Shown piece after piece: positions 5,109-60,706 of a DNA stretch of 64,000 bases. Numbering within the stretch: position 1 is the stretch's first letter; every line of letters starts with the position of its first letter. The translations under genes and the position numbers were made by a program. Source of the DNA: Escherichia phage ECML-4; sequence record JX128257. One strand, given 5' to 3'. Under the pieces are notes generated by a model. The model was not told the DNA's origin. It worked only from the letters and a program-made list of their open reading frames with translations, and made no database searches.

Positions 5109-5729
5109 ATGGCTATGTATTTGCAGGGGAAGTATGTTCCCGTAAATCCCAAGAAATATAAAGGCGATGTGAACAAAATAGTTTTTCGTTCATCACTAGA
5201 ACTTGTCGCCTTCAAATTCTGTGATATGAATCCTGCTATTGTTTATTGGTCATCCGAAGAAACCGTAATCCCATATATCTCTCCAGTTGATGGTCGCGCC
5301 CACCGCTATTTTATGGATTTGAAAGTATGGACTCGTCGACAAGACTCTGAAGAGTTACAGATAACTCTTATTGAAATAAAACCCAAAGACCAAATTAAAG
5401 AACCCCGAAAAACAAAAACGATGAAGGAATCAACGTTCAATAATTCGATGCGTACATGGCTGGTGAACCAAGCGAAGTGGACCGCCACCAAAGAGCATTG
5501 TGCTAAAGTTGGTTGGAAATTCATTATTTGGACGGAAGAGCATTTGGTACCAGGAGAAGATCCCGAAGTTAAAAAACAATTTGCGCTACGTTCTAAGAAA
5601 AAGCGCGAGGTCGAAATGGAAGATCGACGCCGCGCTCAAAGAATTAATGCGTTGAAAGAGCAGATGAAAAAGGAAACTTCCAACAAACAAACGACAAAAC
5701 CTGAGGATGACGGTTTGTTGTTACCCTGA
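5109..5729 (+). CDS. PD-(D/E)XK-like protein, possibly head completion (T4 gp4-like)
   Basis: 206 aa; E...D...E-x-K arrangement (SSLE, FMDLKVW, IEIKPK) consistent with a TnsA-N-like nuclease fold; Lys/Arg-rich tail; lone plus-strand gene between minus-strand blocks. Confidence 0.4.
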   Translation: MAMYLQGKYVPVNPKKYKGDVNKIVFRSSLELVAFKFCDMNPAIVYWSSEETVIPYISPVDGRAHRYFMDLKVWTRRQDSEELQITLIEIKPKDQIKEPRKTKTMKESTFNNSMRTWLVNQAKWTATKEHCAKVGWKFIIWTEEHLVPGEDPEVKKQFALRSKKKREVEMEDRRRAQRINALKEQMKKETSNKQTTKPEDDGLLLP

Positions 5730-5939
5730 TTTCCTTGGATGTCCAGGGGCAAAACAAGTTTGTTTGTCCCTGCATATCACCCATCCTTCCGAACGGGCTT
5801 GTCTAGCACAATCAGCCCAAGTTTCACCAGCATAAGACTTCATACCGCATCTTGGGTGGTGCTCTTGCCAAGCCCAATCACAAGATTTGCATTCCACGCA
5901 TTCACAATACAAATCTAATGTGTATCCTGCGGTAATCAT
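5721..5939 (-). CDS. small Cys-rich protein (possible zinc-binding)
   Basis: 72 aa with 8 Cys including CECVECKSC; fills the gap between neighbours. Confidence 0.3.
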   Translation of the reverse strand: MITAGYTLDLYCECVECKSCDWAWQEHHPRCGMKSYAGETWADCARQARSEGWVICRDKQTCFAPGHPRKSG

Positions 5940-6347
5940 TTAATCCGCCAGGCGTTCGTAAATTTTTTGACGGAACTCATTCCCTTTTGCACAACCTGTG
6001 GCCAGCAAACGAGTACCGCCTGTCCCGATGACACTGATCGTTGAAAATCTGAGAATACGGCCTGTAATGGACTGATCCACTTTGATGGTCTCAACTTTAC
6101 CCAGGCGAAGTTCATCAGCATCACGGCGGATAAACCCTCGTTTTACGATAACCCGTTTGTTGGTGACTGCGAATTCCGTGGTCATCACATTCAAGATAGT
6201 TGGGATCAGGAATAACAAACTGAAACCAAATGTTGGAATAATCGTTAAAGCGACGAGAACATAAATCCAGAATCCACTCCACCAAGTCGGACGAGTGAAT
6301 GCAACCACATATTCATTTTCGCTCAGCATACGGTCGACGTAACGCAT
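5940..6347 (-). CDS. membrane protein with bacterial PH-like domain
   Basis: 135 aa; two adjacent hydrophobic helices then a beta-rich domain (VTNKRVIVKRGFIRRD...LRLGKVETIKV). Confidence 0.4.
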   Translation of the reverse strand: MRYVDRMLSENEYVVAFTRPTWWSGFWIYVLVALTIIPTFGFSLLFLIPTILNVMTTEFAVTNKRVIVKRGFIRRDADELRLGKVETIKVDQSITGRILRFSTISVIGTGGTRLLATGCAKGNEFRQKIYERLAD

Positions 6348-6348
6348 T

Positions 6349-6870
6349 TTAATTCCTTACTTTGTCAGGATTAGATAAGATTTGTTCGTATCCGACTTCT
6401 CCTTGATAGTCGAAAACATGCTGAAGAATCGCCATATCTTCTACCATCCGATAAACTTCAATTCCAGCGTTCATCAATTTTTTGATTCCATCCATAATAC
6501 GATATGGCTCACGATAATATACTTTATCGATTTTACCGCTATCTATTATCTTTTGAGTGCAATTAGGGCAAGGACTATGTGTCACAAACATAACCAACCC
6601 TGTGAAATCATCTGCATTTTCGGGGATACGCATTAGAGCATTTTCCTCCGCATGAACGACACACGGGTTTGTAACAATTTGCCCGTGTTGTTCCATCTCA
6701 CAAACATTCGGCATGCCAGGAGGCGTTCCGTTCCATCCTATAGCCACAGGCTGATCAGTTTCAGGGTTTACAATAACACAACCGACTTGCAGACGCCGAG
6801 CATAACTGGTTACACCATATGCTGCAGCTGATCGCATATGAGCAAACATCATACGTGGTTTGATAGCCAT
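6349..6870 (-). CDS. cd: dCMP deaminase (cytidine/deoxycytidylate deaminase family)
   Basis: zinc-binding signatures CVVHAEENA (H-x-E) and HSPCPNC (PC-x2-C); 173 aa. Confidence 0.85.
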   Translation of the reverse strand: MAIKPRMMFAHMRSAAAYGVTSYARRLQVGCVIVNPETDQPVAIGWNGTPPGMPNVCEMEQHGQIVTNPCVVHAEENALMRIPENADDFTGLVMFVTHSPCPNCTQKIIDSGKIDKVYYREPYRIMDGIKKLMNAGIEVYRMVEDMAILQHVFDYQGEVGYEQILSNPDKVRN

Positions 6871-7274
6871 TATTCACCTCTCAGAAGACGAGCGAAGCGT
6901 TCAACAATGCGATTGCGCGGCTTCTCGGGAACGATGTCTTCTACCGTAATGGTCAGTGTGTAGTTTGTAGAAAAATCGCAATCGGACTTTGTGATGATTT
7001 TCCGTTCACCAGGCAGCGGATACATCGTTAAAGCCCTATCGACGGAATCTAGAGAAGAACCGACCAAGTCCACCACCCTTTGGTGCCCGAACGATAATGG
7101 ACCTACGACATCCTTTTCAAAAATTTCAATCACGTCGGTGACTAACACACCCAATGCAAGTCTTAGTCCAAGGTTCTGATTTTTATCCCCTAGTGTGTAC
7201 ACAAACTGCCGACGCCACAACTCTTTCCGGTCTTCAGAACGGACGAGAGAATAATTCAAATGGTATTGTTTCAT
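6870..7274 (-). CDS. hypothetical protein
   Basis: 134 aa ORF, 1-nt overlap with downstream gene. Confidence 0.4.
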   Translation of the reverse strand: MKQYHLNYSLVRSEDRKELWRRQFVYTLGDKNQNLGLRLALGVLVTDVIEIFEKDVVGPLSFGHQRVVDLVGSSLDSVDRALTMYPLPGERKIITKSDCDFSTNYTLTITVEDIVPEKPRNRIVERFARLLRGE

Positions 7275-7650: not shown

Positions 7651-8001
7651 TTATTCAGTACAAGCTCGACCAAGTTCAGTCAGGCGGTAGAATGTTACTT
7701 CTGATTTCGGCCAATGCTTATACTCTTCAGAGTCATCATGAACCATAGTGAACGCAGGTTCGATCAGACCTTTAGATAATAATGATTGCCCTGAACGTGT
7801 ATCCCACGGATCACCTTTTACAGAACGAAACCCACCAGCAATCGGAGGGGCATGGAATGTCCATACTGTCTTGCCCTTTTCATTCGTCCAAGACTTCGGA
7901 TTGAAATACCAATGACAAAGGCGTCGATCATCATGGGTTTCAAAATTCAGCATTCCCAGAAGGACACAGAGTTGATGTCCTGTGATTCTTGGCTTTTTCA
8001 T
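7651..8001 (-). CDS. hypothetical protein
   Basis: 116 aa ORF in a chain of 4-nt overlaps. Confidence 0.4.
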   Translation of the reverse strand: MKKPRITGHQLCVLLGMLNFETHDDRRLCHWYFNPKSWTNEKGKTVWTFHAPPIAGGFRSVKGDPWDTRSGQSLLSKGLIEPAFTMVHDDSEEYKHWPKSEVTFYRLTELGRACTE

Positions 8002-8330
8002 AAGATCCCCAAGTCAGTAAGGTAACGATAAGACAGGACTACAGATAGAAATCCAATTAACATCCAAGACGACAGGATAGGCTTGCAATTTAGCGTAGTC
8101 TTTCCATTGGGTATGTTGGGACTTCCAGTAATAACAACCGAATCCGTTTTAGCTCTCAACGTCATGACAGAACCCATGAGAATGATTGGGCGCACATAAT
8201 GTCCGTCGCGATTGCGCTTTACAATACATGGTGAAGAAAATCGCAGGAACGGATCACCGCTTTTATAACCGAACAACTCGACCTTTTCTATTTCTTCGGG
8301 AACCTTTTGTCCAGGAAAGAATATTCTCAT
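7998..8330 (-). CDS. hypothetical protein
   Basis: 110 aa ORF, translationally coupled chain. Confidence 0.4.
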
Positions 8331-8887
8331 AATATGATTCCTAAATTTGTGTATAACAATTCAGCTAGAGTAACAGGTCGTTTGAATTGTTCCCAGCTGC
8401 AGTTCAGATATTCACGTTCTTCGCGGATCTTTTCGTGAAGATGTCCGTGGATATTATACGCCCAACGATCTAATTGATACGGAACGTGTGTAGTCAGAAT
8501 CCGACCGACAGAAGTATCCCGCTCATACATGGCACCAAAGGATGTAATCCAGCCCTCCAGATACAACCGCATTAACATTTTGAAACTGTCGTGGTTGCCC
8601 TGTGCCACCCTGATGATAAAGTTCGGACGCCATTCATCGGGAACGGGGCGGCGCTTGAACTCATCAATGTTCCGCTTGGCTCCTTCGCGCATCAGGCGTA
8701 TGAACCCCTCAGCGCCGATAAAGCAGATGTCCCCCGCCAGTTCAAGGACATCCCGAGATTTCAGCCCTTGGAATATGCTGTCTATAACCGCAGCATCATG
8801 GGATTCTTGAGTATCGAATCCACGAGGTTTAAAGACTTTTTTATGCCCGAGGTGAGTGTCACCAAGGTACTTGACAATTCCTGCCAT
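8327..8887 (-). CDS. calcineurin-like metallophosphoesterase
   Basis: GDTHLG near N-terminus, GNHD and HGHLH motifs. Confidence 0.7.
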
Positions 8888-9229
8888 TTATGGCCTCCTC
8901 ATCCATTCTAATATTGGGATGCCTACAAACCCTTTATGCCAGCGGTGGGGTTTATGGCCTCTGTTGTGATCCAACAAACAAGTATCTGGAGGAACACTGA
9001 AATGGATACCATCGATATCGTAATAATTCCCGTCGATAAGAGTATACACATGCCCTTCAATCTGGCTGTAATGAATCTCCGCTTGCGGATAAACGTGTTT
9101 GAGAACCAGGGCGACTTGATAGCACTTCCCGTTCTTTCCCACATACTCAACATCCACCTGTTGTGGGAAAATGTCCTTGATCAGATTTATCAATATGGTG
9201 ATATCATTCACTACAACAGATGGTTTCAT
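8888..9229 (-). CDS. hypothetical protein
   Basis: 113 aa ORF, His-rich C-terminus. Confidence 0.35.
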   Translation of the reverse strand: MKPSVVVNDITILINLIKDIFPQQVDVEYVGKNGKCYQVALVLKHVYPQAEIHYSQIEGHVYTLIDGNYYDIDGIHFSVPPDTCLLDHNRGHKPHRWHKGFVGIPILEWMRRP

Positions 9230-9242
9230 CTTCTCATCTCAC

Positions 9243-9905
9243 CTATGATAACTCATAGCGATGGCGGGTACATGCAGGGCAATTACAGTCTTTTCTCAAA
9301 ATTGGCATTTCACACCACGTCATCAAACCATGTATTGGAGACATATGATGATAAAACCATGATTTTTTGAGACTAATCAAAGGATATAAAATTTCAATTG
9401 GCCTTTCCCCGTCTCTTGTCATCATATTGTATCCTTCGATGACCTTATTGAAAGCTGGGATCCAGTGGATCGCGTCGTCCCCGTTGACATATGCCAATAT
9501 GTATGTGGGAGGCAAACTCCGGCCTTTAAATTGTGTGTTTAATAACCATATCGGGGCTTGTGCTAAACACGCACGAAACCCGCCGTCCGGCACGTGAATG
9601 CTACTAATCGGTTCTTGGTGATGAGTCCAACGATGCATAAGAAGCGGAGCATTCTTGTTGATCCAATTATAAATTTTATTTCGCGCCCAATTCTCACGTT
9701 TGGATTTGAAATTATTATTTTCAAGATGGCAATACACAGTATGAACCGAATAACCTTTCGATAATAACCAAACCAACATGTATGTGCTATCCACGCCGCC
9801 TGACCAAAACAATGTCACTTCTTGATTATTTTCCGGCAAAGGTGCATCCCCTTGAAGGACACGGTACACAAATTCACAATCAGATACAGAGACAGCGATT
9901 TCCAT
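9243..9905 (-). CDS. PP-loop ATP pyrophosphatase, QueC-like
   Basis: SGGVDST PP-loop; C-terminal C-x8-C-x-C-x2-C cluster resembling the QueC zinc site; 220 aa. Confidence 0.5.
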   Translation of the reverse strand: MEIAVSVSDCEFVYRVLQGDAPLPENNQEVTLFWSGGVDSTYMLVWLLSKGYSVHTVYCHLENNNFKSKRENWARNKIYNWINKNAPLLMHRWTHHQEPISSIHVPDGGFRACLAQAPIWLLNTQFKGRSLPPTYILAYVNGDDAIHWIPAFNKVIEGYNMMTRDGERPIEILYPLISLKKSWFYHHMSPIHGLMTWCEMPILRKDCNCPACTRHRYELS

Positions 9906-10201
9906 TAAATTATTCCCCTCAAAGAGTCATTGATTCTACGCAATTCATTTTCCACCTTTATCTTCATATTTTTGTCGTCGTTCACGAAAATCATTTTATC
10001 TAAATCTTCGCCATTAATCTTTGTATAAAAATAAATGTCATGCTCAAAGAAAATCGTTTTTCCAACAGAACGCATGGCAAAGAATGTCGCAATAGTTCTC
10101 GATAATGGCTTGAACTTAATAGCATTAAAACGCAAAGCCTGATATAGGGGTTTTAATGTTCCCAATCTGATACAGTGCTGAATGATTTCTTGTTCTTTCA
10201 T
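9905..10201 (-). CDS. hypothetical protein
   Basis: 98 aa ORF. Confidence 0.35.
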   Translation of the reverse strand: MKEQEIIQHCIRLGTLKPLYQALRFNAIKFKPLSRTIATFFAMRSVGKTIFFEHDIYFYTKINGEDLDKMIFVNDDKNMKIKVENELRRINDSLRGII

Positions 10202-10283
10202 CCCATTGTCCGAGTGACGGGGTTTCCGATGAATCCCCCTATGTTTGTTGGTTAAACAATGATACTTTAGTCAAGATATAGAA

Positions 10284-10306
10284 AAGCCCCTTTCGGGGCT
10301 TATTCT
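10284..10306. terminator. hairpin terminator (possibly bidirectional)
   Basis: AGCCCC-TTTC-GGGGCT with T-rich flanks. Confidence 0.5.
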
Positions 10307-10590
10307 TCATCAGATTTGAAAAGGTTCCATCGGCCTATTCCATACCATTCTCCAATATTGTTGGAGTAGCGGGTTGTCCTAACTCCACCGATTTCGTACC
10401 CCCATTTGAAGAAACTCCATCTTTCCTTTAGGGTGGGTGGTTTATTTCCGGTTGCCAAGGAGCAAGCTGTAAGCCAACGTGCGATACTAATGGCTTGAAA
10501 AATTGGATGAATAAACGAATAATACACAACACCCAGAGTTATAATGACGAAGACGCATGTCGTAATCAACCCGACAATTTCAAAGAACAT
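10300..10590 (-). CDS. small membrane protein
   Basis: 96 aa; N-terminal hydrophobic helix (LITTCVFVIITLGVVYY); terminator hairpin just downstream. Confidence 0.4.
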   Translation of the reverse strand: MFFEIVGLITTCVFVIITLGVVYYSFIHPIFQAISIARWLTACSLATGNKPPTLKERWSFFKWGYEIGGVRTTRYSNNIGEWYGIGRWNLFKSDEE

Positions 10591-10664
10591 TTATAACCCC
10601 CAATATTGAACACACACTATGATGAACGTTGTGATCGTGAATACCCAGGAGAAGATAGAAAGTT

Positions 10665-11297
10665 TCATTCTTCTACCTTTAGCCCCATCAGGTCTTCCAT
10701 GGTCTTCTGAATACGAAGCCAATCAAGAGCAGCGTCATAACGAGGATCGTGGTATACCATGCCTTCCAGTTCCCAAGCCTTGATACCAGCATAACGATCC
10801 TGTTGCCCAACGCCTTTCAGCCAGCTCACGATGTCGAAGGTGTGATGGTAATCCCAAGGCTCGTTGGAGTCCTGCTTACATGTCACCTCAATGATATGTT
10901 GGGCCTTGCGGAGATCAAACAAGTTTCGGTCACACCAGTCAACCGAGCGCGGGTCTATCCCAAGACGATGACAACCTTTGCGGATTTCATCGGCCAGCTG
11001 GAAGATAGAGGTGTCCTGATCGGTCGGGTACAGGCTGACAGCGCGAGCAGCATCACACGGGTTTCGCTTACCCGTACCTAACCACCATTCAACAGTCCCC
11101 TGATCCTTGACGCGGCCAAGTTTAGTCTGCTCTTTGACATCCAACTTTATGAACGTCGTTCGCTCTTCAACGAGTTGCTGAAGAGTGTAGCGTTTGGTCA
11201 GGTCGGCGATAGTATGCGCCCAGGATAACATAATAGCATCGTCCCAGCGCCCCAGAGTCTCGCTATCGGCGACAGCCAAGAAATTAGATTTATACAT
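10665..11297 (-). CDS. 3'-5' exonuclease, DEDDh (DnaQ-like; DexA-like)
   Basis: Exo I AVADSETLG, Exo II HHTFDIVSWL, Exo III YHDPRYDAALD. Confidence 0.65.
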   Translation of the reverse strand: MYKSNFLAVADSETLGRWDDAIMLSWAHTIADLTKRYTLQQLVEERTTFIKLDVKEQTKLGRVKDQGTVEWWLGTGKRNPCDAARAVSLYPTDQDTSIFQLADEIRKGCHRLGIDPRSVDWCDRNLFDLRKAQHIIEVTCKQDSNEPWDYHHTFDIVSWLKGVGQQDRYAGIKAWELEGMVYHDPRYDAALDWLRIQKTMEDLMGLKVEE

Positions 11298-11634
11298 CGG
11301 TTTCCCCCGCTTTCTCTAAAAGAAGTTTCAAAGGATATGTCCCACAAGCGGTGGCATATTCAACTCTGAAATATGAATTATCGTTCATGGCGAAATTGCG
11401 ATGAGGAAAATATTCACCATCATCAAAACCACCCATCCCTCCACCGACGCGATATTGTTTCAATTCTACTTCGCCACCGTAACGCAGTTGGGCGTAGAGA
11501 CCGATAGGAGCGCGAACATAATGCTCCAACCACACCCAATTACCGTCATGTAGACGGGTGGGTAAAAACGCAAACCGTACCTTGGGATGAAGAACGGCTT
11601 TAGCCAACATTTCTTCCGTCACTTCAGATTTCAT
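11290..11634 (-). CDS. hypothetical protein
   Basis: 114 aa ORF overlapping neighbours by 8 and 4 nt. Confidence 0.35.
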   Translation of the reverse strand: MKSEVTEEMLAKAVLHPKVRFAFLPTRLHDGNWVWLEHYVRAPIGLYAQLRYGGEVELKQYRVGGGMGGFDDGEYFPHRNFAMNDNSYFRVEYATACGTYPLKLLLEKAGETDV

Positions 11635-12236
11635 CCGATGCTTTCCTCTTCGATGACGTCTTCTTCATTAGGAACAACCGAGATCCCAAAGTCGATCATT
11701 TGAGAGAGTTCTTGTAAATCCTTTTCGAATCCATCCCCTTCCCGAATATAGAATACTGGGACCACGCGACGGCGAGTATCTTCAAAGATGGTTTCGGCGA
11801 TTTTGTTAATCTGGCCCACCACATGTGTGAGATTCAAGCCACCAATACCACAACCGATGGCGGGCAAACCGACATAGACAGTTTCATCAGCTTTGGCTTC
11901 AACGATATCATGAATTTGTTCAAACATGATCTGGACTGAGCTAATGATAGATGGCATGCGAGCATTGGGACCTGGGTAAAATTGAGTATACAAATTGAAT
12001 CCCCAGACACCAGTGTCATGATCAAACGCATAGGACATGTTTCCCAAGCGCTGTTCCGGACCACGTTCATCTAATTGGTCGGCGCGGTAAATCTCTGGGA
12101 AATTCAATCGAACGTGATTGGCGATACCCGCGCCCATTACAGACCAACAATTTGCGCCGTGAGCAAAGGCATTGATAAGATTGAAACTCGTGGCGGCTTT
12201 TAATAAATCGCCATTTGTGATAATATAAGTGGTCAT
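11631..12236 (-). CDS. macro domain protein (ADP-ribose binding/hydrolase)
   Basis: INAFAHGANCWSVMGAGIANHV matches the macrodomain N-x6-GGG-V-x2-AI signature; start moved to the ATG at 12236 forming an ATGA overlap with the upstream stop. Confidence 0.6.
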   Translation of the reverse strand: MTTYIITNGDLLKAATSFNLINAFAHGANCWSVMGAGIANHVRLNFPEIYRADQLDERGPEQRLGNMSYAFDHDTGVWGFNLYTQFYPGPNARMPSIISSVQIMFEQIHDIVEAKADETVYVGLPAIGCGIGGLNLTHVVGQINKIAETIFEDTRRRVVPVFYIREGDGFEKDLQELSQMIDFGISVVPNEEDVIEEESIG

Positions 12237-12469
12237 GCGTAACGTCTCCATTGTATAATTTCGTTGTCGACACAACTGACCTGAATGATACACATATTCT
12301 GGCGATGGTCGGTGAGTGTCATAATAAAACTGTCTGGTTGTGACATGACACGATTAACAGATATCCCGCGCGACATCAAACGAAAGCAAATTTCTTGATA
12401 CAAACGTTGCATATATCCTGAAACAGAAGCCGATTCATATGCGCGTTCAAATTCGTATAATTCGTTCAT
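12233..12469 (-). CDS. hypothetical protein
   Basis: 78 aa ORF, 4-nt overlaps on both sides. Confidence 0.35.
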   Translation of the reverse strand: MNELYEFERAYESASVSGYMQRLYQEICFRLMSRGISVNRVMSQPDSFIMTLTDHRQNMCIIQVSCVDNEIIQWRRYA

Positions 12470-30025: not shown

Positions 30026-31261
30026 TCATCGTTTCAACAAAGACATGAGGTTTACACTGGTCGACTTCGGATTGTCATCTATCTTCCGGACGGGCATTTT
30101 CAGATTAGTGTAAACCTCAGATGGTTCCCAACGCGTACCCTGCTGCAGGTGCCAAATATGAAGAGGAACACCCGTCTCAAAGAACACAGGCATCTTCCAC
30201 TTCTGGACGCCAGGAACGTGCCCTGCAGGAGCTTTTTCGCATAACAAGGTATCTGGTAGCCAGAGGGAACGGGCTTCCCATAATGCCTTACAGGAGTACT
30301 CAGGCCAGATGCGTTCCATGTAGTCGATCTCATCCCAAGTACGCTCAGCATCCCACCCGATGTAACGAGTGTTTTTCAGACGGAAGAATTTCTTAAGCCA
30401 ACAAGCACCGGAAGTCTCAAAGTTCAAACGATTGATGAACGTGATGTGACCAAACTCGGCGACACAATCTTTGAATGCCTGTTCAAGATCAGCCTCAAGG
30501 ATGTCGCATTCTTCATCGGTGATAGGACAGCCGTTGATCTTTTTCTTTCCGTGCTTGGTCACCCAGTCGTCACGGTTTGACAAGAATGCCGCGCCGTTGC
30601 GGTTGGACTCACTACCATCACGGTCACGCAACATGAACCCAGGGACGTCGATCTGATACATGTTGCCGAATACCATGTTCAGGGCTTCCAGGAAGTTCCA
30701 GGCGCTCAGGCGACCGAAGTATTTCCATCCCATAGCCGTGTCCCATAGCTTAACGAATTGATCACTTTGCAGTTTAGTCTCCAACAACGGACGGAAAGCA
30801 TCCATCTGAGTACGACCAGCTAGCCAATCAATGTAGGACTGAACACACGGGATCATCTTCGATTTGCGATAGCGGCAATCAGTATCGAATCGCATACGCT
30901 CGAAGTTCAGGTTATACCAATCACAGAATCGCTTGAACTCTTGTGGTGACTGAGGCGGTACAGGAAACTCACTATAAATCGTCCATGGGCCAATCCCATT
31001 ATAACAACAGCCCCAAAGGAACGCCATCCAGATCTTGCGCTCGATCTTCTCAAGCTGTGTAATGCCTTCAGTGACTTCAATCGCATAATCCATCAGACGA
31101 ACTTGTTGGTTGTGTTCTTCCGTATACGACAGCGCCTCCACCCATGCTTTGAGCAGATACATCCGATTCTCTGGCTTACGATAATCGATTGACAAATCAA
31201 TTGGGTACTTCCATTCAGCCGGAGGCGTATAACCTGTCGGCATTTTAGATAGATGCGTCAT
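30026..31261 (-). CDS. hypothetical enzyme-sized protein (candidate DNA-modification enzyme)
   Basis: 411 aa, Trp/Cys-rich, no motif recognised; lies beside the P-loop kinase and HAD genes. Confidence 0.3.
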   Translation of the reverse strand: MTHLSKMPTGYTPPAEWKYPIDLSIDYRKPENRMYLLKAWVEALSYTEEHNQQVRLMDYAIEVTEGITQLEKIERKIWMAFLWGCCYNGIGPWTIYSEFPVPPQSPQEFKRFCDWYNLNFERMRFDTDCRYRKSKMIPCVQSYIDWLAGRTQMDAFRPLLETKLQSDQFVKLWDTAMGWKYFGRLSAWNFLEALNMVFGNMYQIDVPGFMLRDRDGSESNRNGAAFLSNRDDWVTKHGKKKINGCPITDEECDILEADLEQAFKDCVAEFGHITFINRLNFETSGACWLKKFFRLKNTRYIGWDAERTWDEIDYMERIWPEYSCKALWEARSLWLPDTLLCEKAPAGHVPGVQKWKMPVFFETGVPLHIWHLQQGTRWEPSEVYTNLKMPVRKIDDNPKSTSVNLMSLLKR

Positions 31262-31803: not shown

Positions 31804-32718
31804 CTACGCCTTACGCATTAGCCCCAGAAGGGACACGGATGAGGTCTTTGGTTCTTCCTTGGCGACGGCCTTGTTTTTAGTTTTGGATGCCTTCTGCGGC
31901 TTCTCAGGCACTCTGTGAGCCAAAGGATCCTGACCGCCGACTTCACGCGTCATCGGATTGGTTTCGCAATAGCCGTAGAAGTCTTTCGACATCAGATTGT
32001 TAGCGCGGCAAACTGTGCCAAGCTGATGATAGATAGCATTACCCACCACCCACAACGGGGCGTCGAACGGCAACATAGCCAATTCGCTATCATTCCCAGT
32101 CTTGAATTCTTGGGTGTTCGTAGCCGTTTGGTGGTACAAAACGTCTTGCCCACTGTAATCATCCACGGCAACATTCCAGCCAAGCGCCAGCATTTCAGCC
32201 TTGGACTTCTCGAACTCCTTGGAGTAAGATTCGTTGCGCGACCAGCCGGAATCCCCCGCTTCTTTACCAGAGCGTCCACGGATGCGGGCATCGTACTGAT
32301 AGCGGTCTGGATATGCAAAGTACAGCAGCGCCAAAGAATCAATCGGATAGTTCTTGAACATCCATTCAGGACGCCACTTGTCCGACAGCATCAGGGGTTC
32401 GCCCTCACACACCAGGGTATATCCCTGAGCCAGCCAACCCTTGACGAGGTCGCGAGCAATATCCCCAGAGCCTGTGGCAGCATGAATGGCGTCCATAGAG
32501 GTCCAAGACGCCAGGCCGGATTTATTGGACACTGTGTATTGGCCGACGAAGATTAACTTCAGCTCTTCAAATTTCAGGCCGAAGGGGCGCGTCTTATCCC
32601 CAACAGTGTACGACAATTCAGTCGGCTTCAGCTTAGTGCGGAGCCACTCGATGAACTGTACGACACGAGTGCCTTTACCCGTGCCGCTGGTTCCTTTGAT
32701 TACGATGATCTTTGCCAT
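31804..32718 (-). CDS. P-loop nucleotide kinase-like protein
   Basis: N-terminal IVIKGTSGTGKGT, an NMP-kinase-style G-x-G-K-G-T P-loop; 304 aa. Confidence 0.5.
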   Translation of the reverse strand: MAKIIVIKGTSGTGKGTRVVQFIEWLRTKLKPTELSYTVGDKTRPFGLKFEELKLIFVGQYTVSNKSGLASWTSMDAIHAATGSGDIARDLVKGWLAQGYTLVCEGEPLMLSDKWRPEWMFKNYPIDSLALLYFAYPDRYQYDARIRGRSGKEAGDSGWSRNESYSKEFEKSKAEMLALGWNVAVDDYSGQDVLYHQTATNTQEFKTGNDSELAMLPFDAPLWVVGNAIYHQLGTVCRANNLMSKDFYGYCETNPMTREVGGQDPLAHRVPEKPQKASKTKNKAVAKEEPKTSSVSLLGLMRKA

Positions 32719-33032: not shown

Positions 33033-33875
33033 CTATCGGACATATTGATAATGAGAAACCAGGCGATTCACCACTTCATCGAGGTTACGATTTAAGAAGT
33101 CAAAGTGGTTTTGGCCTTCTACATGCTTAATATAAAGCATATCCTCGCAATTCGAAAGATCCAGTTTTTCATAATTGCCCTGAGGGACGAAGATGACGAA
33201 GATGTTATTCAGGGCACACGGCTCAACATACTTCGGATTGTCGTCGATCAGGACATCGCCAGCAAGCAGATGCTTTTCATCCGTGCTCACGAACCCATTA
33301 ATCAACGATTCAAAGTGATGGTATATGAACTGACGCTTGCTGCGTTCGTGTTCCGGTTCGCATTTTGTAACTGCCACCATTTCCACTTGCTCAAACTTCT
33401 GAAGGAGAGCGGCCTTTAAATTCGTAAGGAATTCAACAGCCCCTGGCAGTGGTGACATTCTGGAATACAGATCAGGCATACGCCACCAATCCATCGGATC
33501 ACGTCCTGTTGGCGAATCCATCCACTGACCAGCAACGAATACACGGCGCGTTAACCAGGCCGGATGCGCGCGTTCACGCATGAGGATCGCCAGATCACCA
33601 GCGTGTGACATATAACACTCTTTGGTGATTGGTTGAAATTCAGATGGGTAGTCGTGACATCCCATATTTTCCGCAGCGGCTTTAGAATTAGAAATATTGA
33701 ACCATTCAACCCACGGCGATAGGGAATCAACCAGAGTCAAATCCACATCCACCAGAACGCGATATAACCCGCCAATTTTAGAACATGCGTCATACAGACC
33801 AACGTGATTATTCATCAGATTTCTCCACATTGTCATAACCCGTTGCGGTGCATTGTTCTTCAGTGCAATCGGCAT
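33033..33875 (-). CDS. HAD-superfamily hydrolase (5'(3')-deoxyribonucleotidase-like)
   Basis: HAD motif I in LVDVDLTLVDS (DxDxT), late DVLIDD; start probably an internal Met because the ORF 5' end overlaps the upstream gene. Confidence 0.5.
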   Translation of the reverse strand: MPIALKNNAPQRVMTMWRNLMNNHVGLYDACSKIGGLYRVLVDVDLTLVDSLSPWVEWFNISNSKAAAENMGCHDYPSEFQPITKECYMSHAGDLAILMRERAHPAWLTRRVFVAGQWMDSPTGRDPMDWWRMPDLYSRMSPLPGAVEFLTNLKAALLQKFEQVEMVAVTKCEPEHERSKRQFIYHHFESLINGFVSTDEKHLLAGDVLIDDNPKYVEPCALNNIFVIFVPQGNYEKLDLSNCEDMLYIKHVEGQNHFDFLNRNLDEVVNRLVSHYQYVR

Positions 33876-34212: not shown

Positions 34213-37209
34213 TCAACCTTTCTTGCCCATCATGGACAACAGATTAACTCGACGTTTGTGAGACCAACCAACCACGTCTAGAATAGACTGAATCGGCTCT
34301 ATGAAGGTCTTTTCAAACGTGGTGTGGTAATCTACCCACTTATCCAGCCCCAACTCCGGAGGGAGGAAGTCAGGGAAGGCTATGCGGTCGTTCCCCACAG
34401 GGTTCCCAGGTTTCAGGTTAATGATTTTAACCTTATCGCCAGATTCTATCGGCGGGAGACCGAGGTCTTCATGCTTGTCTATCAGCTTGTTGTACATAAT
34501 ACAAGCCTTGGCAGCAAAGTGTGTGCCACTGATATAATTTCCGTTGCCGTCTAACCACTTCTCAATATCACTAACGCCAGAGGCTTGAGCAATATCATCC
34601 ACGGTTAATTCCATATATTCCTTCTTATAACCCGCGATCAATTCCTGAACTTCAGCCTCCGTCCCCAGCAGAACTTTCTCATAGCATTTAACCAGACGCT
34701 CACGACACCATTCCGGCGTTGTAGATTTACGCGCTTCCAGACCTTTGAATTTTATCTTTGGCTTCTCATACTTGATGCCTTCGCTATCGTATACTGCCAT
34801 GCAATACATCTTCTTGGCTCGCCATACAGCAGACGATGCGATGACCTCACGTTCCCAGACCATGCGCTGCTCAAACCCGTTCATGGTATTACACAACAAC
34901 TGCGCCCATTCACTGGTTTTTGGCTGGTAATTCTCTTTGATCCATTGGTCAATGTTATCAACGAGTTTGTGATGATCCTTTTCTTCAGGCCACAATTGCT
35001 TGACCAGACGTTCAATGCAAATGTAGTTGGAGTCAGTATCACCCGCGATAACAAAATCCTGACCAGTAGTGCCGCAAAGTTTGTTCAGATAATCATCGGT
35101 GTGGCGTTTGTTCCATTTGTTGATCAGCTGGCCGGAAGTGGTGATTGCTTCAGCGATGTTGATGTTGAAGTATTCTTTAAACCAGACGTTGGAGATTGCG
35201 CCATAACCTGCGTTCATCAAGATCTTCAGACCTTGTTGTAACGTGTCTTGAGCAACCCCCAGATCTTCCCACTTGTGCATGACTTCAGTCAGGTGATCAA
35301 GATCGATGTGCTTGTGTTCTTCATACCATTCAGGATCGTAGAAACGAGACTTCATGGCGGATTCAAGGTGGAAATCACCTTTAGACATTTCCTTACACCA
35401 ACCAGCCCATTGCTCATACTTCAGGCCAGTTGCTTTCTCTCCTTTACGGTCAGCGTATATGCCTCGCATAATTTCGGAAAGGAAGGACATCTTCTCATTA
35501 CTGAAGAACTGAACGTTCGGGGTAAACGAAACGTTATATCGGCGTAGTGTTTCAAAATGGAATTCGCCCAGCGCGACCAATTCATCAACAACTTGTATGC
35601 GTTCATCAATAGCACGCTGCAACTTGTCGTGAAGATTTTTGAGATGACGACGTTTATTCATCGGCGTTGTCATATCATTCATCGCTTTGGTCAATTCCTC
35701 ACACATGGCCTCAATAATATCACGGCGGGTGTGCTTATCAGAAACGATAGTCTCTGGACCAAGGTTGTATTGCTGTATGATGTGGGGATACAGGGAGTTT
35801 AAGTCCTCAGAGAAGACCCAGAAATATATCCCTGGTGCAACCTCCATGACATATGCGCCTTCAAAATCTGTTGGCCCATCATAGACGCGCTGGATTTTCG
35901 GGACAATCCCCTTCTCATAAAGACGATAATAACACATCGCCAGCCACGGCGCTACAGTGCCGAGACCGTCTTCATAGTTGGATTTAGTGCGATAAGCCAA
36001 TACAAACATCAGCTGTATCAAACGCAGTTTTTGTTCTAAGCGCCACACCAGCTTGACGTCTTTGATACCATATCGCGTATGCTTGCAATAATCATTGAAA
36101 TAAAGGTCATACAATGATTTGCTTTCACTATAATCCAACTTCTTCTCACCGAGTTCACAATAAGCGATCCAGTCCAGTGAGTATTTTTCACGGGTGGTGT
36201 AAGTGTGTTTCTTGTACACTTGCATGTAGTCCATCATTGGACAACCCACAAACTGATAAGACGTGACGTCGCCTTTACGGTCTTTGATGAAACGTTTCTT
36301 CAGTTTACCCCAAGGACTGAGACGTTGGGCTTCAGATTCACCAAGAACCTGCGTAATTCGTTCAACCAAATAGGGGCTATCGAACGTTTCAATGTTCCAC
36401 CCAGTCCAACCGTCAAATTGACGCTGCGACCAGTAATCCAAGAAGGCGCGAAGCAGATCTTGTTCCGTCGTATATTCTTTATATTCAACCTCAAGACCGC
36501 CGACTTCTTCATCATTGGGGTCATATTTGAATTTATGGCGATCCTTGGAACACGGCATGCCCCAGACATAGAATTTATTGGTATTCATATCTTGGAGCTG
36601 TATCAGCGTAATAGGGAACGCCGCATTCATGTTCTGTGTGATTTTACCGTTACTGTCAATTATAGGGAATTGGTCAGTCACGTTGTTGGAAATAAAGGAA
36701 CCAGGGAAATGCTCCCGAACGAAATCATGGTTGGCCAGTACTTGCTTATGGAAACGACGAACCCGCGCCTCGCTGCCTTTAAACGTGTGAGATTCAATCG
36801 TTGCGTGTGGGAATGGACCTTTAGTCATTTCTCCGTCACGCCAACCAGCCGAGAACACTTCGATATCCACGTTGGCGATGTGGATATTTGAATAATCAGG
36901 TGTGATCATCCCAGGAAAACTATGGGCGATGAATTGATATGCATAATCCGTTTGTCCATACACCGCAGCCCCTTCGACCTCCTTGTACTCCTCAAGATAG
37001 TTGTCAGCGTCGCGCATTGATGCAAACTTTTTAGACACCAACGGTTCGTTGAGGAGGCCAATCTTTTCAACTTTGGAATAATCAGCTGTGGGTAAATACA
37101 AGGTGGGTTCGAATTTCTTACGCAACATGCGGCGATTGCCGTTGTCGTCTGCGATACGAATCAGAAGGTCGTTACCCTGTCGGGCAACGTTCGTATAGAA
37201 AACAGTCAT
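34213..37209 (-). CDS. family B DNA polymerase (T4 gp43-like)
   Basis: Exo I NVDIEVF, motif A DLNSLYPHI, motif C AGDTDS; start set to ATG 37209 (MTVFYTN) preceded by GGAGA SD. Confidence 0.9.
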   Translation of the reverse strand: MTVFYTNVARQGNDLLIRIADDNGNRRMLRKKFEPTLYLPTADYSKVEKIGLLNEPLVSKKFASMRDADNYLEEYKEVEGAAVYGQTDYAYQFIAHSFPGMITPDYSNIHIANVDIEVFSAGWRDGEMTKGPFPHATIESHTFKGSEARVRRFHKQVLANHDFVREHFPGSFISNNVTDQFPIIDSNGKITQNMNAAFPITLIQLQDMNTNKFYVWGMPCSKDRHKFKYDPNDEEVGGLEVEYKEYTTEQDLLRAFLDYWSQRQFDGWTGWNIETFDSPYLVERITQVLGESEAQRLSPWGKLKKRFIKDRKGDVTSYQFVGCPMMDYMQVYKKHTYTTREKYSLDWIAYCELGEKKLDYSESKSLYDLYFNDYCKHTRYGIKDVKLVWRLEQKLRLIQLMFVLAYRTKSNYEDGLGTVAPWLAMCYYRLYEKGIVPKIQRVYDGPTDFEGAYVMEVAPGIYFWVFSEDLNSLYPHIIQQYNLGPETIVSDKHTRRDIIEAMCEELTKAMNDMTTPMNKRRHLKNLHDKLQRAIDERIQVVDELVALGEFHFETLRRYNVSFTPNVQFFSNEKMSFLSEIMRGIYADRKGEKATGLKYEQWAGWCKEMSKGDFHLESAMKSRFYDPEWYEEHKHIDLDHLTEVMHKWEDLGVAQDTLQQGLKILMNAGYGAISNVWFKEYFNINIAEAITTSGQLINKWNKRHTDDYLNKLCGTTGQDFVIAGDTDSNYICIERLVKQLWPEEKDHHKLVDNIDQWIKENYQPKTSEWAQLLCNTMNGFEQRMVWEREVIASSAVWRAKKMYCMAVYDSEGIKYEKPKIKFKGLEARKSTTPEWCRERLVKCYEKVLLGTEAEVQELIAGYKKEYMELTVDDIAQASGVSDIEKWLDGNGNYISGTHFAAKACIMYNKLIDKHEDLGLPPIESGDKVKIINLKPGNPVGNDRIAFPDFLPPELGLDKWVDYHTTFEKTFIEPIQSILDVVGWSHKRRVNLLSMMGKKG

Positions 37210-43599: not shown

Positions 43600-43675
43600 T
43601 GGTTGCTTCAACTGGATTCGAACCAGTGACCTCTCCCTTATCAGGGGAACGCTCTACCTACTGAGCTATGAAGCA
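43600..43675 (-). tRNA. tRNA-Ile (anticodon GAT)
   Basis: hand-folded cloverleaf: acceptor TGCTTCA/TGAAGCA, D stem GCTC/GAGC, anticodon stem TTCCC/GGGAG with loop CTGATAA, T arm ACTGG-TTCGAAT-CCAGT, CCA encoded. Confidence 0.8.
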
Positions 43676-43678
43676 ATT

Positions 43679-43767
43679 TGGCGGAAGGTGAAGGATTCGA
43701 ACCTTCGGGGGCTAAAAGCCCCACTCGATTAGCAGTCGAGTCCCTTAAACCTCTCGGGCAACCTTCC
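43679..43767 (-). tRNA. tRNA-Ser (anticodon GCT), type II
   Basis: acceptor GGAAGGT/ACCTTCC, anticodon stem CTCGA/TCGAG with loop CTGCTAA, long variable arm, T arm GAAGG-TTCGAAT-CCTTC, CCA encoded. Confidence 0.8.
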
Positions 43768-44052
43768 GTATACTGCGCCTCGGTCAAGAATTTTCCAAGC
43801 CATGACCTAAATCTGGGTTCTTGACCTGACCGAGCGTAATTTGGACGGGCTTCACACCCGATTGTGCATTTGATCTGCCGTAGCCCAACTCCCCGCGCCG
43901 AAGCGCCGATTGGTTAACTGGCACCAGTGCCTTCTGGTTCGATCTCCTGTAACTTTACAGGCTTTGCGCCCGACCATTTCTGGAAGTTGAGGCATCGTTC
44001 CCGATGTGGAGTCCCCTCATTTTACACAGCTGGCTGCAACGCTTACTGTGTT

Positions 44053-44136
44053 TGGTGTGAGTGGATGGATTCGAACCACCGCGCTGTTACGGGGAGATTT
44101 ACAGTCTCCTGCATTCGACCGCTCTGCCACACTCAC
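44053..44136 (-). tRNA. tRNA-Tyr (anticodon GTA), type II
   Basis: acceptor GTGAGTG/CACTCAC, anticodon stem GGAGA/TCTCC with loop CTGTAAA, 12-nt variable region, T arm GGTGG-TTCGAAT-CCATC, CCA encoded. Confidence 0.75.
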
Positions 44137-44392
44137 ATTTGGTCTACCACCACGTGCTGGGCCACGCTCGAGGACATCGGCCATCCTTCCTCAGCTAATC
44201 CACGCGGCGGTAGATTTAGATCAGAGTGTACGGTGTAGCATTCCGCAGGGGTGCACCTACTGTAGCCCTTTCACTCTGAAATTGTATGAAGTAGGTCTCA
44301 CTCCCCTGGGTATCTGTATCCTGCAGCCTTACATTGGCAGCTATCGCGCGATTCGCACTTCCGAAGGCGCTTCGAGATACTCTACTTCAATT

Positions 44393-44468
44393 TGGCGACG
44401 ATGGCAGGACTTGAACCTGCGACATATGGATTAACAGTCCACCGTTCTACCGACTGAACTACATCGTC
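44393..44468 (-). tRNA. tRNA-Asn (anticodon GTT)
   Basis: acceptor GACGATG/CATCGTC, D stem GTTC/GAAC, anticodon stem GTGGA/TCCAT with loop CTGTTAA, T arm GCAGG-TTCAAGT-CCTGC, CCA encoded. Confidence 0.8.
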
Positions 44469-44469
44469 A

Positions 44470-44670
44470 TTATCCGTGCTTGTTTGCTTCAATTGCCCTT
44501 AATTGAGCATCAGCGTCAGCTTTGGTGTCATGTGTCCCAAGAACCTTCGTCTTGGTGTGGTCAAGGACAACCCACTTGTCGCCTCGCTTTTCAACAAACT
44601 CAACAATCTCTTTGTTGTCGGTAGCGAGGCCATCCCACTCAGCAAGAAACTCACCGAACGTTTTCATCAT
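44470..44670 (-). CDS. small hypothetical protein embedded in tRNA cluster (66 aa)
   Basis: track ORF begins with TTG; more likely start is the ATG-ATG pair at 44670 preceded by GGTGAG. Confidence 0.35.
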   Translation of the reverse strand: MMKTFGEFLAEWDGLATDNKEIVEFVEKRGDKWVVLDHTKTKVLGTHDTKADADAQLRAIEANKHG

Positions 44671-44787
44671 ACTCACCAATTGTTTATTGAACAACTGGTT
44701 TATTTAGGTGCTCCCGAGGCGGTATTTTAATCCCGCGATCCCATCTCGCCTGCCGTAGACCAGAGCATGCTGACAGTCCAACATATT

Positions 44788-44863
44788 TGGTGACCCTGGC
44801 TGGACTTGAACCAGCGACCAATCGATTATGAGTCGACTGCTCTAACCACTGAGCTACGGGGCC
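44788..44863 (-). tRNA. tRNA-Met (anticodon CAT)
   Basis: acceptor GGCCCCG/CAGGGTC (one C-A mismatch), D stem GCTC/GAGC, anticodon stem GTCGA/TCGAT with loop CTCATAA, T arm GCTGG-TTCAAGT-CCAGC, CCA encoded. Confidence 0.7.
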
Positions 44864-55348: not shown

Positions 55349-57232
55349 ATGATTTCTCAATTCAATCAACCACGCGGCTCCACTTCCATAGAAGTTAACA
55401 AACAATCTATCGCTCGAAATTTCGGTGTCAAAGAAGACGAAGTCATTTATTTCACTGCTGGTATTGATCTCAGTGGATTTAAAGTAATTTATGATGAGTC
55501 TACCCAACGGGCTTATTCTCTCCCTTTCGGTATTGTTTCAGGGACAACTGCAATTAGTCTGGATGAAAGAGCTATCCTCACTCATTCCGCTGGCTCTGTT
55601 GACCTTGGGGAATTAGCAGTAAGCCGCGAAGAATATGTGACTTTACCTGGTTCTTTTAATTTCGGCCATACCATTAATGTGAAAAATGAACTTCTTGTTC
55701 ACGATGATAAAAAATATCGATGGGATGGCACATTACCTAAAGTTGTTCCTGTTGGATCAACTCCTACAACAACTGGGGGAATTGGGGTTGGTGCATGGTT
55801 GAGTGTTGGTGATGCATCGCTACGTGGTGAATTATTTTCAGAATACATCTTATACAAAACACCTCAGGCATTTGGTGCTATTGGTGATGGAGTTGCTGAT
55901 GACACTTTATCACTGCAAGATGCAATGGATTACTGTCAGGTTCACAACGAGAAACTTGTTATCCCATCAGGACGCTATCGAATCACCAAGCCACTGCTAT
56001 ATCGCAACCAGGGTTTTTATAACTATGAGATTGAAGGGCAGGGAGGTGCTGCTGTAATCATCATGGATTCTCTGGAAAAAACTGGAATTACTGCTCCTGA
56101 TGCCTTTGGCGATGATTTTAACGTTAACGCAGCGATGGTAGTTCTGAATGACACTAACCAGAGTAAGTATTGCCGCATTAGTGGATTGCGTTTCGAATCA
56201 CCAGTTGGTGCTGAATATGCTATTTATGTTGGTCAGGCAGAAAATACGTATATCCATGACTGCTTCTGGACTGGTTTCACCTTTGGGTGGTATGACCTTG
56301 GATCATGGGTTACACGCGTAGAACGCTGTATTGCCAGGGATATTGTAGATACTGGGTTCTTTAAGAAAAATGGCACCAGTACCTACATAGCTGAGTGTTA
56401 TGCAGACAGGATGATGCGAGGGTATTACCTCGGGGGTGGGTATTCGGCTATCATAAATTGTGCTTGCGATTTAACCACTCGCTGGGGGTTCTATCTATAT
56501 GGTGGTAGGACTGGTTCTGATTTAGCAACATTCTCTATTAAAGGTTGTGGTTCAGAGCAGTCTGGAACTGATTCTGTATTTTATGTTGACGGGCTAGTTG
56601 CGCTGTCTATAGAGGACCACAACGCAGGTAATGACCCAACTGTTCAACCAGCACCTGCTGCGTTGCTTAGCATGGCTTCGAATACATCATATTCACAAGT
56701 GGTGCTGAAAAATATTAGGACAGTAAATGTGGATACATTAATTTTGGATTCTGCTGACCATAATTATTTTGATTTAACAAATGTCACATGCCGCAGCGAG
56801 ATGTCGAAAGAATTTTATCTCGGTACGAATTCAAGAGTTTTAAAAAGGTCATATGATGGTGAAAGATTCATTACTAGCAACGACCAAGTTGGCATTGGCT
56901 TTGCGGAGTCTGATATTGTTGATGGATGGACAGATCTCACTTTGTCTGGACTAAGAAATGGACAATTTATAATTAGGAGGACTGTAAGCATACCCAGAAC
57001 TTCAGGGGATGCTGGGGCGGTAACTATCACGATGCCATTAAATATGGATACGAATTATACCGTAGCTGCCACTCTGGAGGGTGAATTTAGTCAACTGCAA
57101 TCCATTTGCCCTGTGTTCAGTGTTACAGATAAAACATCATCTAGTTTTTCTTTGTGTGCATCGTCTGCAAAGAATAATACAACATGGTCAGCTATAGATG
57201 TTGAGGTGATTATATATGGGCTGAAATCGTAA
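55349..57232 (+). CDS. tailspike protein (627 aa), pectate-lyase-like beta-helix
   Basis: N-terminal anchor shared with the 60707 gene (KVIYDESTQRAYSLP...HSAGSVDLGELA...LPGSF); FGAIGDGVADDTLSLQDA resembles the Pectate_lyase_3 signature. Confidence 0.8.
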   Translation: MISQFNQPRGSTSIEVNKQSIARNFGVKEDEVIYFTAGIDLSGFKVIYDESTQRAYSLPFGIVSGTTAISLDERAILTHSAGSVDLGELAVSREEYVTLPGSFNFGHTINVKNELLVHDDKKYRWDGTLPKVVPVGSTPTTTGGIGVGAWLSVGDASLRGELFSEYILYKTPQAFGAIGDGVADDTLSLQDAMDYCQVHNEKLVIPSGRYRITKPLLYRNQGFYNYEIEGQGGAAVIIMDSLEKTGITAPDAFGDDFNVNAAMVVLNDTNQSKYCRISGLRFESPVGAEYAIYVGQAENTYIHDCFWTGFTFGWYDLGSWVTRVERCIARDIVDTGFFKKNGTSTYIAECYADRMMRGYYLGGGYSAIINCACDLTTRWGFYLYGGRTGSDLATFSIKGCGSEQSGTDSVFYVDGLVALSIEDHNAGNDPTVQPAPAALLSMASNTSYSQVVLKNIRTVNVDTLILDSADHNYFDLTNVTCRSEMSKEFYLGTNSRVLKRSYDGERFITSNDQVGIGFAESDIVDGWTDLTLSGLRNGQFIIRRTVSIPRTSGDAGAVTITMPLNMDTNYTVAATLEGEFSQLQSICPVFSVTDKTSSSFSLCASSAKNNTTWSAIDVEVIIYGLKS

Positions 57233-57269
57233 TTATTGTATTAAATAAATAACTTATCTTTTATTAAAA

Positions 57270-57296
57270 AACCCCGCTTCGGTGGGGTTAGTTTTT
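57270..57296 (+). terminator. rho-independent terminator
   Basis: AACCCCGCTTCGGTGGGGTT hairpin followed by GTTTTT. Confidence 0.6.
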
Positions 57297-57881: not shown

Positions 57882-57886
57882 TTCAA

Positions 57887-60652: not shown

Positions 60653-60653
60653 A

Positions 60654-60677: not shown

Positions 60678-60706
60678 TTACTAGAGAAAAACAGGAGATT
60701 CTTATT

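Follow-up and report, generated by a model that had tools for sequence, protein, structure and literature searches.

Introduction

Canonical QueC, the 7-cyano-7-deazaguanine (preQ0) synthase covered by the TIGR00364 model and by cluster 1 of PMC13329287, is recognised by a signature combining the motifs SGGxDS, YxQxHxxE, VPxRN and YPDC with K165 and a four-cysteine (Cys4) motif, and the E. coli QueC mutants Y35A, R99A, Y131A and Y189A are inactive (Libby et al. 2026). Cap9 is a QueC-like protein deazaguanylase of the type IV cyclic oligonucleotide-based antiphage signalling system (CBASS); in the Cap9-CdnD structure, deazaguanine is held by R86, which stacks on it, and by Y115 and D117, the counterparts of QueC R99, Y131 and D133. 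QatC, from the defence system QatABCD, has also been proposed to use deazaguanine; with Cap9 and QatC, which attach deazaguanine to proteins in defence against phages, the QueC fold has recently proved to serve far more than preQ0 synthesis. Here, we analysed the gene of a QueC-like protein, Vi01_023 (YP_004327394.1, 220 amino acids), which lies on the minus strand at positions 9243-9905 of a stretch of 64,000 nucleotides from Escherichia phage ECML-4 (record JX128257), hereafter the window.

Other enzymes with a PP-loop (pyrophosphate-binding loop) are known from phage or nucleotide contexts. Synechococcus phage S-B43 encodes CmoY, an asparagine-synthetase-like ligase that joins glycine to 5-carboxymethylcytosine in phage DNA, and YcfA, a small PP-loop enzyme from Erwinia amylovora, was crystallised with GTP according to the title of its PDB entry (9KQ6). 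QueC singletons had already been flagged, and left out of the analysis, by Hutinet et al. (2019), and the singleton has been suspected of being "another subfamily"; a 2026 survey of PF06508 did not include the phage family. In the literature, we found no paper tying Vi01 to the term "PP-loop" and none giving phage QueC-like singletons a function. The label given to Vi01_023 varies with the depositor: "QueC-like queuosine biosynthesis", "putative alpha hydrolase", "argininosuccinate synthase" or "hypothetical protein".

We propose that Vi01_023 is probably an active, zinc-stabilised PP-loop ATP pyrophosphatase of the QueC/Cap9 fold with a rebuilt pocket, which belongs to a viral subfamily and most likely acts on a substrate other than a deazaguanine. 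New here are the apparent loss, at the residue level, of the deazaguanine pocket in a protein whose ATP and zinc sites look intact, the finding that the family is large and nearly confined to viruses, the repeated occurrence of the gene in replication modules and its independence from thymidine-hypermodification genes.

Results

Assignment of Vi01_023 to the QueC superfamily

The gene and the motifs on which the assignment is based are the following:

9243-9905, minus strand: coding sequence of Vi01_023, PP-loop ATP pyrophosphatase with a predicted QueC/Cap9 fold, from a subfamily restricted to viruses (PHROG 1550)
9903-9920, minus strand: translation start as read from the sequence, with a GAGGGG Shine-Dalgarno motif at 9915-9920 and the ATG at 9905-9903
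9783-9803, minus strand: PP-loop SGGVDST, amino acids 35-41, ATP pyrophosphate-binding motif, aligned with SGGQDS of E. coli QueC
9693-9719, minus strand: N63-N64-x2-K67-x3-E71, family-specific motif in the helix after strand 2, at the site of QueC YxQxHxxE
9558-9560, minus strand: Q116, aligned with the essential R99 in the VPxRN motif of QueC, equivalent to Cap9 R86
9471-9485, minus strand: N141-G-D143-D144-A145, within the family motif GYVmNDDAisY; D143 aligns with QueC D127
9363-9365, minus strand: K181, aligned with the conserved QueC K165 in the hhalign mapping and preceded by F174-P175-L176
9270-9314, minus strand: presumed zinc site, Cys4 cluster C198-x8-C207-x-C209-x2-C212, from sequence and alignment

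An earlier note on this DNA had singled out the SGGVDST loop and the C-terminal C-x8-C-x-C-x2-C cluster as resembling QueC. Both can be read directly: the reverse complement of 9783-9803 (TCA GGC GGC GTG GAT AGC ACA) translates into SGGVDST and that of 9270-9314 into C-EMPILRKD-C-N-C-PA-C. Conservation was counted in an alignment (A2) of 60 relatives, which share 24-59% identity with the window protein. In the PP-loop, G37, D39 and S40 are found in 60/60 sequences, the first position is a serine in 57 and a threonine in three, and the first glycine is kept in 58. The four cysteines are likewise present in all 60 and align with C188, C197, C200 and C203 of QueC. The wider family has the C-x2-C-x2-C spacing of QueC, and the Ackermannviridae copies are one residue shorter. 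As these motifs are maintained in 60 diverged relatives, neither SGGVDST nor the Cys4 cluster is there by chance.

The SGGxDS pyrophosphate-binding loop that follows the first beta strand and marks the Rossmann-like PP-loop ATP pyrophosphatase (adenine nucleotide alpha hydrolase) superfamily is thus present, and profile comparisons place the protein near QueC within it. Pfam QueC (PF06508) is the top match of the window protein, with 23.9 bits against a gathering cut-off of 22 and over the PP-loop region only; the same model is matched by 60/60 of the A2 relatives, with a best E-value of 1.4e-12. Using hhalign, A2 aligned full-length with E. coli QueC, over 182 columns (probability 95.8%, E 7.5e-9), and the family aligned with the QueC domain of Gat-QueC from phage 9g with a probability of 95.9%. 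The best PDB match of the A1 profile was 3BL5 (E 8e-4); a phmmer search of the PDB with the single window protein returned nothing significant. PHROG 1550 was matched over its full length (E 8.7e-78). The window protein passed no NCBIfam cut-off, and it scored 18.4 bits against a cut-off of 150.3 with the QueC equivalog model TIGR00364.

The AlphaFold2 model of the window protein (predicted local distance difference test score, 84) has a three-dimensional fold nearest to solved QueC-family structures, Cap9 being the nearest structure. A profile search had been suggested as a check against other PP-loop families such as TilS or NadE; in profile and fold comparisons QueC and Cap9 come out best, ahead of TilS and NadE, and a zinc-type Cys4 cluster is present. 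Altogether, sequence and predicted fold assign Vi01_023 to the QueC superfamily with the PP-loop and the Cys4 cluster kept, and the QueC-like resemblance that the earlier note had proposed is borne out.

A remodelled acceptor pocket

Residues were mapped onto E. coli QueC in the hhalign register. The predicted ATP site is preserved well beyond the PP-loop: D143 and K181 are each found in 60/60 relatives, and P175, close to the latter, in 59/60. By contrast, the positions that hold deazaguanine or are essential in QueC are replaced family-wide. The Y35 position is occupied by I, L, V or F, that of R99 by Q (Q116) in 56/60 sequences, that of Y131 by S in 48/60 and that of D133 by L, I, M or V in 59/60; the essential Y189 has given way to a glutamate, E199 (59/60), and H147-W148-I149-P150 stands in place of YPDC.

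The family has instead a conserved polar set of its own, made of N63 (57/60), N64 (56/60), K67 (50/60), E71 (60/60), Q116, D144 (53/60) and E199. From these comparisons, the deazaguanine pocket appears to be lost, with the ATP site and the presumed zinc site intact. That the acceptor pocket has been rebuilt around a conserved ATP site speaks for an enzyme that is active but on another substrate. Canonical QueC was rejected as an identity for Vi01_023, given the replaced catalytic residues, the TIGR00364 score and the pathway partners that were not found.

Indeed, the earlier note had recognised no QueD, QueE, FolE or tRNA-guanine transglycosylase (TGT)-like partner in the window, and this holds for the whole phage Vi01 genome. 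When the DpdA, FolE, QueD, QueE and Gat-QueC proteins of phage 9g were compared by tblastn with the window and with the complete Vi01 genome, no match fell below E = 0.05, and the sole match on Vi01_023 was the PP-loop of Gat-QueC (E 3.7). The RefSeq annotation of Vi01 lists no dpdA, folE, queD or queE gene. In other lineages, queD, queE, folE and dpdA are not among the 25 most frequent of 51 neighbour Pfam families.

A large family found almost only in viruses

A first word-indexed homology search returned 20 relatives only, of which all those that could be placed are Ackermannviridae-like. A profile built from these 20 relatives and the window protein was then compared with 1.84 billion cluster representatives and retrieved 1,421 proteins at E<=1e-3, each standing for a cluster at 50% identity, and 636 at E<=1e-10. 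The retrieved proteins mostly measure 190-300 amino acids and match from end to end; in longer relatives (up to 462 amino acids), no Pfam domain besides QueC was found. A scan of viral contigs gave 94 confirmed matches, of which 79 distinct loci were kept, and together with loci fetched earlier these form 51 groups at <70% identity.

Among cultured phages, the family is found in Ackermannviridae infecting Salmonella, Escherichia, Klebsiella, Serratia, Erwinia, Enterobacter and Vibrio. Records of Pseudomonas, Ralstonia and Burkholderia phages contain it as well; the Pseudomonas genomes listed there measure about 300 kb. A pattern-limited scan of 185,579 bacterial and archaeal species, one genome each, yielded one full-length copy:

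5896-6582 of locus L089, in the metagenome-assembled chromosome OW818669.1: solitary gene, sole full-length copy from a bacterial genome

This copy is 43% identical to a viral-contig copy (locus L041), and just downstream of it lie two copies of a two-ORF (open reading frame) IS3-like transposase pair; because of these flanking transposases, it is uninformative for context. On the sequences collected, the family is nearly restricted to viruses.

Genomic setting

Bases 8000-12000 of the window are 99.0-99.5% identical to Salmonella phage Vi01 and close relatives, with 99.3-99.5% identity to Vi01, and at least 80% of this stretch is covered by 161 phage records; the window is therefore assigned, by this identity, to a Kuttervirus (Ackermannviridae) genome. 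The ATG of Vi01_023 overlaps by one base the TAA of an upstream 98-amino-acid ORF (9905-10201), forming TAATG. Because of this overlap and of the preceding GAGGGG, Vi01_023 is predicted to be translationally coupled inside a minus-strand operon, which also holds dexA, a phosphatase-like gene and, further on, the dCMP deaminase gene. Other features of the window are:

8888-9229, minus strand: Phage_YunG-like protein (PF24591, E 4e-44), directly downstream of Vi01_023
7998-8330, minus strand: DUF7618 protein (Pfam), further downstream than the YunG-like gene
11631-12293, minus strand: ORF of 220 amino acids, apparently the "ADP-ribose binding protein" of some relatives, with no Pfam match at E<=0.01
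30029-31261, minus strand: amino acid:DNA transferase, Vi01_199 (Pfam ADDT, E 3e-58)
31807-32718, minus strand: 5-hydroxymethyl-2'-deoxyuridine (5-hmdU) DNA kinase 2, Vi01_196 (Pfam HMUD2, E 6e-169)
33036-33815: NT5C-like nucleotidase
34216-37209: DNA polymerase
43600-44863, minus strand: five tRNA genes, Ile(GAT), Ser(GCT), Tyr(GTA), Asn(GTT) and Met(CAT)

Compared with Vi01, the 450-bp gene Vi01_025 is missing at 8887/8888, between the phosphatase-like and YunG-like ORFs. About 400 bp (6875-7272) beside the dCMP deaminase gene Vi01_030 do not align to Vi01 and carry an ORF of 134 amino acids (6870-7274) with no Pfam match. The tail-spike and tail-fibre region (55728-63032) aligns to Vi01 in patches only, at 92-94% identity or not at all, against 97-99% identity in the rest of the window; its receptor-binding genes have probably been exchanged.

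In Ackermannviridae, the QueC-like gene stays between dexA/topoisomerase II and the dCMP deaminase gene; its immediate neighbours vary, and no adjacent gene is kept across the genera. A large uncultured lineage shows the order SNF2 helicase, 120-amino-acid protein, QueC-like gene, family B DNA polymerase, 211-amino-acid protein and Nudix. In other lineages, the gene adjoins RecA/UvsX-like, FEN and DnaB-like genes, and in Pseudomonas phage PS119XW it lies near genes for a dCTP deaminase and an NAD-dependent DNA ligase. In still other contigs, it is found among small early genes, with occasional NADAR, DUF4326, PARP and NAPRTase neighbours. Four extra contexts from metagenome contigs contain mostly small genes with scattered NADAR and DUF4326 matches, and do not lend themselves to statistics.

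In the uncultured lineage, the 120-amino-acid protein is always directly upstream (for instance at 5640-6000 of locus L046), in about 20 viral-contig groups such as L067, L060 and L072. Its N-terminus is conserved as M-[G/A]-x-x-Y-x-W-x-x-N-P, and the small residue after the initiator methionine recalls the glycine N-termini modified by Cap9 and QatC. In some contigs of jumbo-phage size, the QueC-like gene overlaps a downstream NADAR gene, with DUF4326 nearby (L094:8711-9148, L094:2426-2719 and L097:1361-2530). Elsewhere, single PARP, NAPRTase and nucleoside 2-deoxyribosyltransferase-like neighbours were seen, in numbers too small for a verdict on any link with NAD or ADP-ribose metabolism.

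A conserved partner was sought by all-against-all clustering of the ORFs of 83 loci and was rejected, as only lineage-specific synteny emerged. Pfam enrichment among 131 neighbour proteins pointed to general replication and nucleotide-metabolism families only. Taken together, the gene looks like that of an enzyme which stands alone and is expressed alongside genes for replication, nucleotide metabolism and host takeover.

Discussion

The catalytic activity of Vi01_023, its adenylation chemistry and the class of its substrate (a nucleotide, a nucleobase, a protein terminus or another small metabolite) are inferred. In the mechanism that we propose, modelled on what all characterised enzymes of this fold do, Mg-ATP would be bound at SGGVDST, D143 and K181, and AMP would be transferred to a carboxylate or carbonyl oxygen of the substrate. 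An amine or ammonia would then displace AMP, resulting in amide or ligation chemistry, and Vi01_023 would be an ATP-dependent adenylating ligase or amidotransferase. The substrate would most likely not be 7-carboxy-7-deazaguanine (CDG). Vi01_023 would act alone, with no conserved partner, and would be expressed alongside early and middle genes of DNA replication and nucleotide metabolism. Of the two possibilities raised in the earlier note, a role in a deazapurine pathway whose other steps lie elsewhere or in the host is disfavoured by the replaced QueC residues and the TIGR00364 score, and recruitment for a different adenylation step is the one that we favour.

Several points weigh against this proposal. 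QatC lacks the canonical QueC motifs and is nonetheless proposed to use deazaguanine, so that motif loss alone does not fully exclude this substrate; given this precedent, we leave a small probability for deazaguanine use by Vi01_023. The comparison of pockets is one of sequence and profile alignments, and the viral restriction rests on a pattern-limited scan. The genomic context is lineage-specific synteny only, with many copies among small early genes. Finally, the proposed chemistry is carried over from homologues.

The most attractive rival is a conjugation like that of Cap9 or QatC, because Cap9 is the nearest structure and shares with the family a "CE" dipeptide at the first zinc cysteine. 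Deazaguanine or another acyl group would be attached to a protein N-terminus, either modifying a phage or host protein or serving as a decoy against type IV CBASS or Qat. The PADLOC Cap9-type QueC model does give full-length matches to relatives (E 1e-8 to 1e-10), the 120-amino-acid protein with the M-[G/A]-x-x-Y-x-W N-terminus is always directly upstream in the uncultured lineage, and some copies lie near NADAR, macro-domain and PARP genes, which are typical of counter-defence regions. However, the residues R86, Y115 and D117 that hold deazaguanine in Cap9 are not conserved, no CD-NTase, Cap10 or QatABD genes are nearby, and no adjacent partner is conserved among Ackermannviridae genera. The family would also seem too widespread in phages to be a counter to two uncommon systems. 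We regard this rival as improbable, if worth keeping in mind.

GUN-anticodon tRNAs are the class that bears queuosine in bacteria, and the CAT tRNA of the window may be of the Ile2 (lysidine) type. With five tRNA genes in the window, one can imagine that Vi01_023 modifies RNA, as the PP-loop enzymes TilS, ThiI and TtuA do, and that its targets are phage tRNAs such as the CAU-anticodon one. Nonetheless, the TilS, ThiI and TtuA families score clearly below QueC and Cap9, and Vi01_023 lacks RNA-binding domains, THUMP and the TilS C-terminal domain included; outside the zinc site, it has neither catalytic nor Fe-S cysteines. Nucleic-acid binding was also considered from charge and finds no support, the isoelectric point of the family being neutral (median 6.9). 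Such a role on RNA seems quite unlikely to us.

A functional QueC would convert host-made CDG into 7-amido-7-deazaguanine (ADG) or preQ0, and so raise queuosine in tRNAs, including the phage tRNA-Tyr(GUA) and tRNA-Asn(GUU), or deazaguanine in DNA. The preQ0 pathway is present in Salmonella, GUN anticodons occur in two of the window's five phage tRNAs, QueC gives the best Pfam and PDB-profile matches, and the Cys4 cluster and the lysine are kept. Against this, the four positions at which alanine mutants are inactive are replaced family-wide, the TIGR00364 score is far below its cut-off, and the tblastn searches found no DpdA/TGT homologue for base insertion into DNA. Furthermore, the host has its own QueC, and the known modification of phage ViI is on thymidine and was reconstituted in vitro without Vi01_023. 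This makes QueC activity very unlikely.

We give equally little credit to an accessory step in the hypermodification of thymidine to 5-(2-aminoethoxy)methyl-2'-deoxyuridine (5-NeOmdU), for instance at the carboxylate carried by the intermediate O-serinyl-thymidine. Both the amino acid:DNA transferase and the 5-hmdU DNA kinase 2 are encoded in the same window, an intermediate of the pathway bears a carboxylate, and CmoY sets a precedent for a PP-loop enzyme ligating onto the carboxylate of a DNA base. But the kinases together with gp247 and gp226 were sufficient to make 5-NeOmdU in vitro. Moreover, the transferase occurs in 19 Dickeya phage records and the QueC-like gene in at most one Dickeya record, and, conversely, the genera listed for the transferase do not include the Pseudomonas, Ralstonia and Burkholderia jumbo phages with the QueC-like gene. 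The link was rejected because the two distributions are uncoupled and the modification has been reconstituted in vitro in published work.

Finally, a catalytically dead scaffold, a pseudoenzyme that only binds, is the hardest to credit: no activity is on record and the canonical substrate residues are lost, but the diverged relatives retain the PP-loop almost unchanged and D143 and K181 without exception, and N63, N64, E71, Q116 and E199 form an equally conserved second polar set, which points to a working, re-specified pocket.

Returning to an active enzyme with a rebuilt pocket, we tentatively suggest, as one possibility, that the PHROG 1550-like family (at least 1,400 clusters, almost only from phages) carries out an undescribed, infection-specific and ATP-dependent modification. 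It might act on a nucleobase, a nucleotide or DNA, or conjugate a protein in counter-defence, with the QueC/Cap9 scaffold rebuilt around N63, N64, E71, Q116 and E199. The family is widespread, nearly virus-only and kept in several Ackermannviridae genera and in jumbo phages, and its members are regularly given the wrong label, "QueC-like queuosine biosynthesis" or "7-cyano-7-deazaguanine synthase". The presence of the gene should not serve to predict deazaguanine-modified DNA in therapeutic Kuttervirus phages. The family is also a well-defined and easily expressed target in the search for new phage chemistry of nucleotide, DNA or protein modification.

Relation to QueC, Cap9, QatC and other PP-loop enzymes

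Vi01_023 has the same size, about 220 amino acids, and the same SGGxDS PP-loop as QueC (E. coli b0444; B. subtilis, PDB 3BL5), and the equivalents of D127 and K165 and the location of the C-terminal Cys4 cluster are common to both. It departs from QueC in that the motifs YxQxHxxE, VPxRN and YPDC, together with Y189, are all replaced in its family, and in the spacing of the zinc site, C-x8-C-x-C-x2-C instead of C-x8-C-x2-C-x2-C. Vi01_023 also has no queD, queE or folE neighbours, and its family is viral whereas QueC is cellular.

CmoY and YcfA provide PP-loop precedents for action on a base carboxylate or for purine-nucleotide binding in phage and nucleotide contexts. Unlike Vi01_023, neither has the Cys4 zinc site, and the cmoY gene adjoins those of its partners CmoA and CmoX, whereas Vi01_023 has no conserved partner.

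QatC follows the same evolutionary pattern as Vi01_023, the PP-loop and a variant zinc site being kept and the substrate motifs completely remodelled. It is, however, a protein of about 400 amino acids with N- and C-terminal extensions and motifs of its own, none of which is found in the 220 amino acids of Vi01_023, and it is always encoded with qatA, qatB and qatD, whereas the neighbours of Vi01_023 are phage replication genes. In the PADLOC scan, only the Cap9-type QueC model was matched and no QatC model.

Cap9 of type IV CBASS (PDB 9NTO) has in common with Vi01_023 a minimal single-domain architecture and the "CE" dipeptide. While Cap9 retains the deazaguanine residues of QueC as R86, Y115 and D117, the Vi01_023 family does not, and while Cap9 is encoded in defence islands beside a CD-NTase and Cap10, Vi01_023 is phage-encoded and has no such neighbours. 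Beyond preQ0 synthesis, Cap9 and QatC, the Vi01_023 family represents a third, phage-side radiation of the QueC scaffold.

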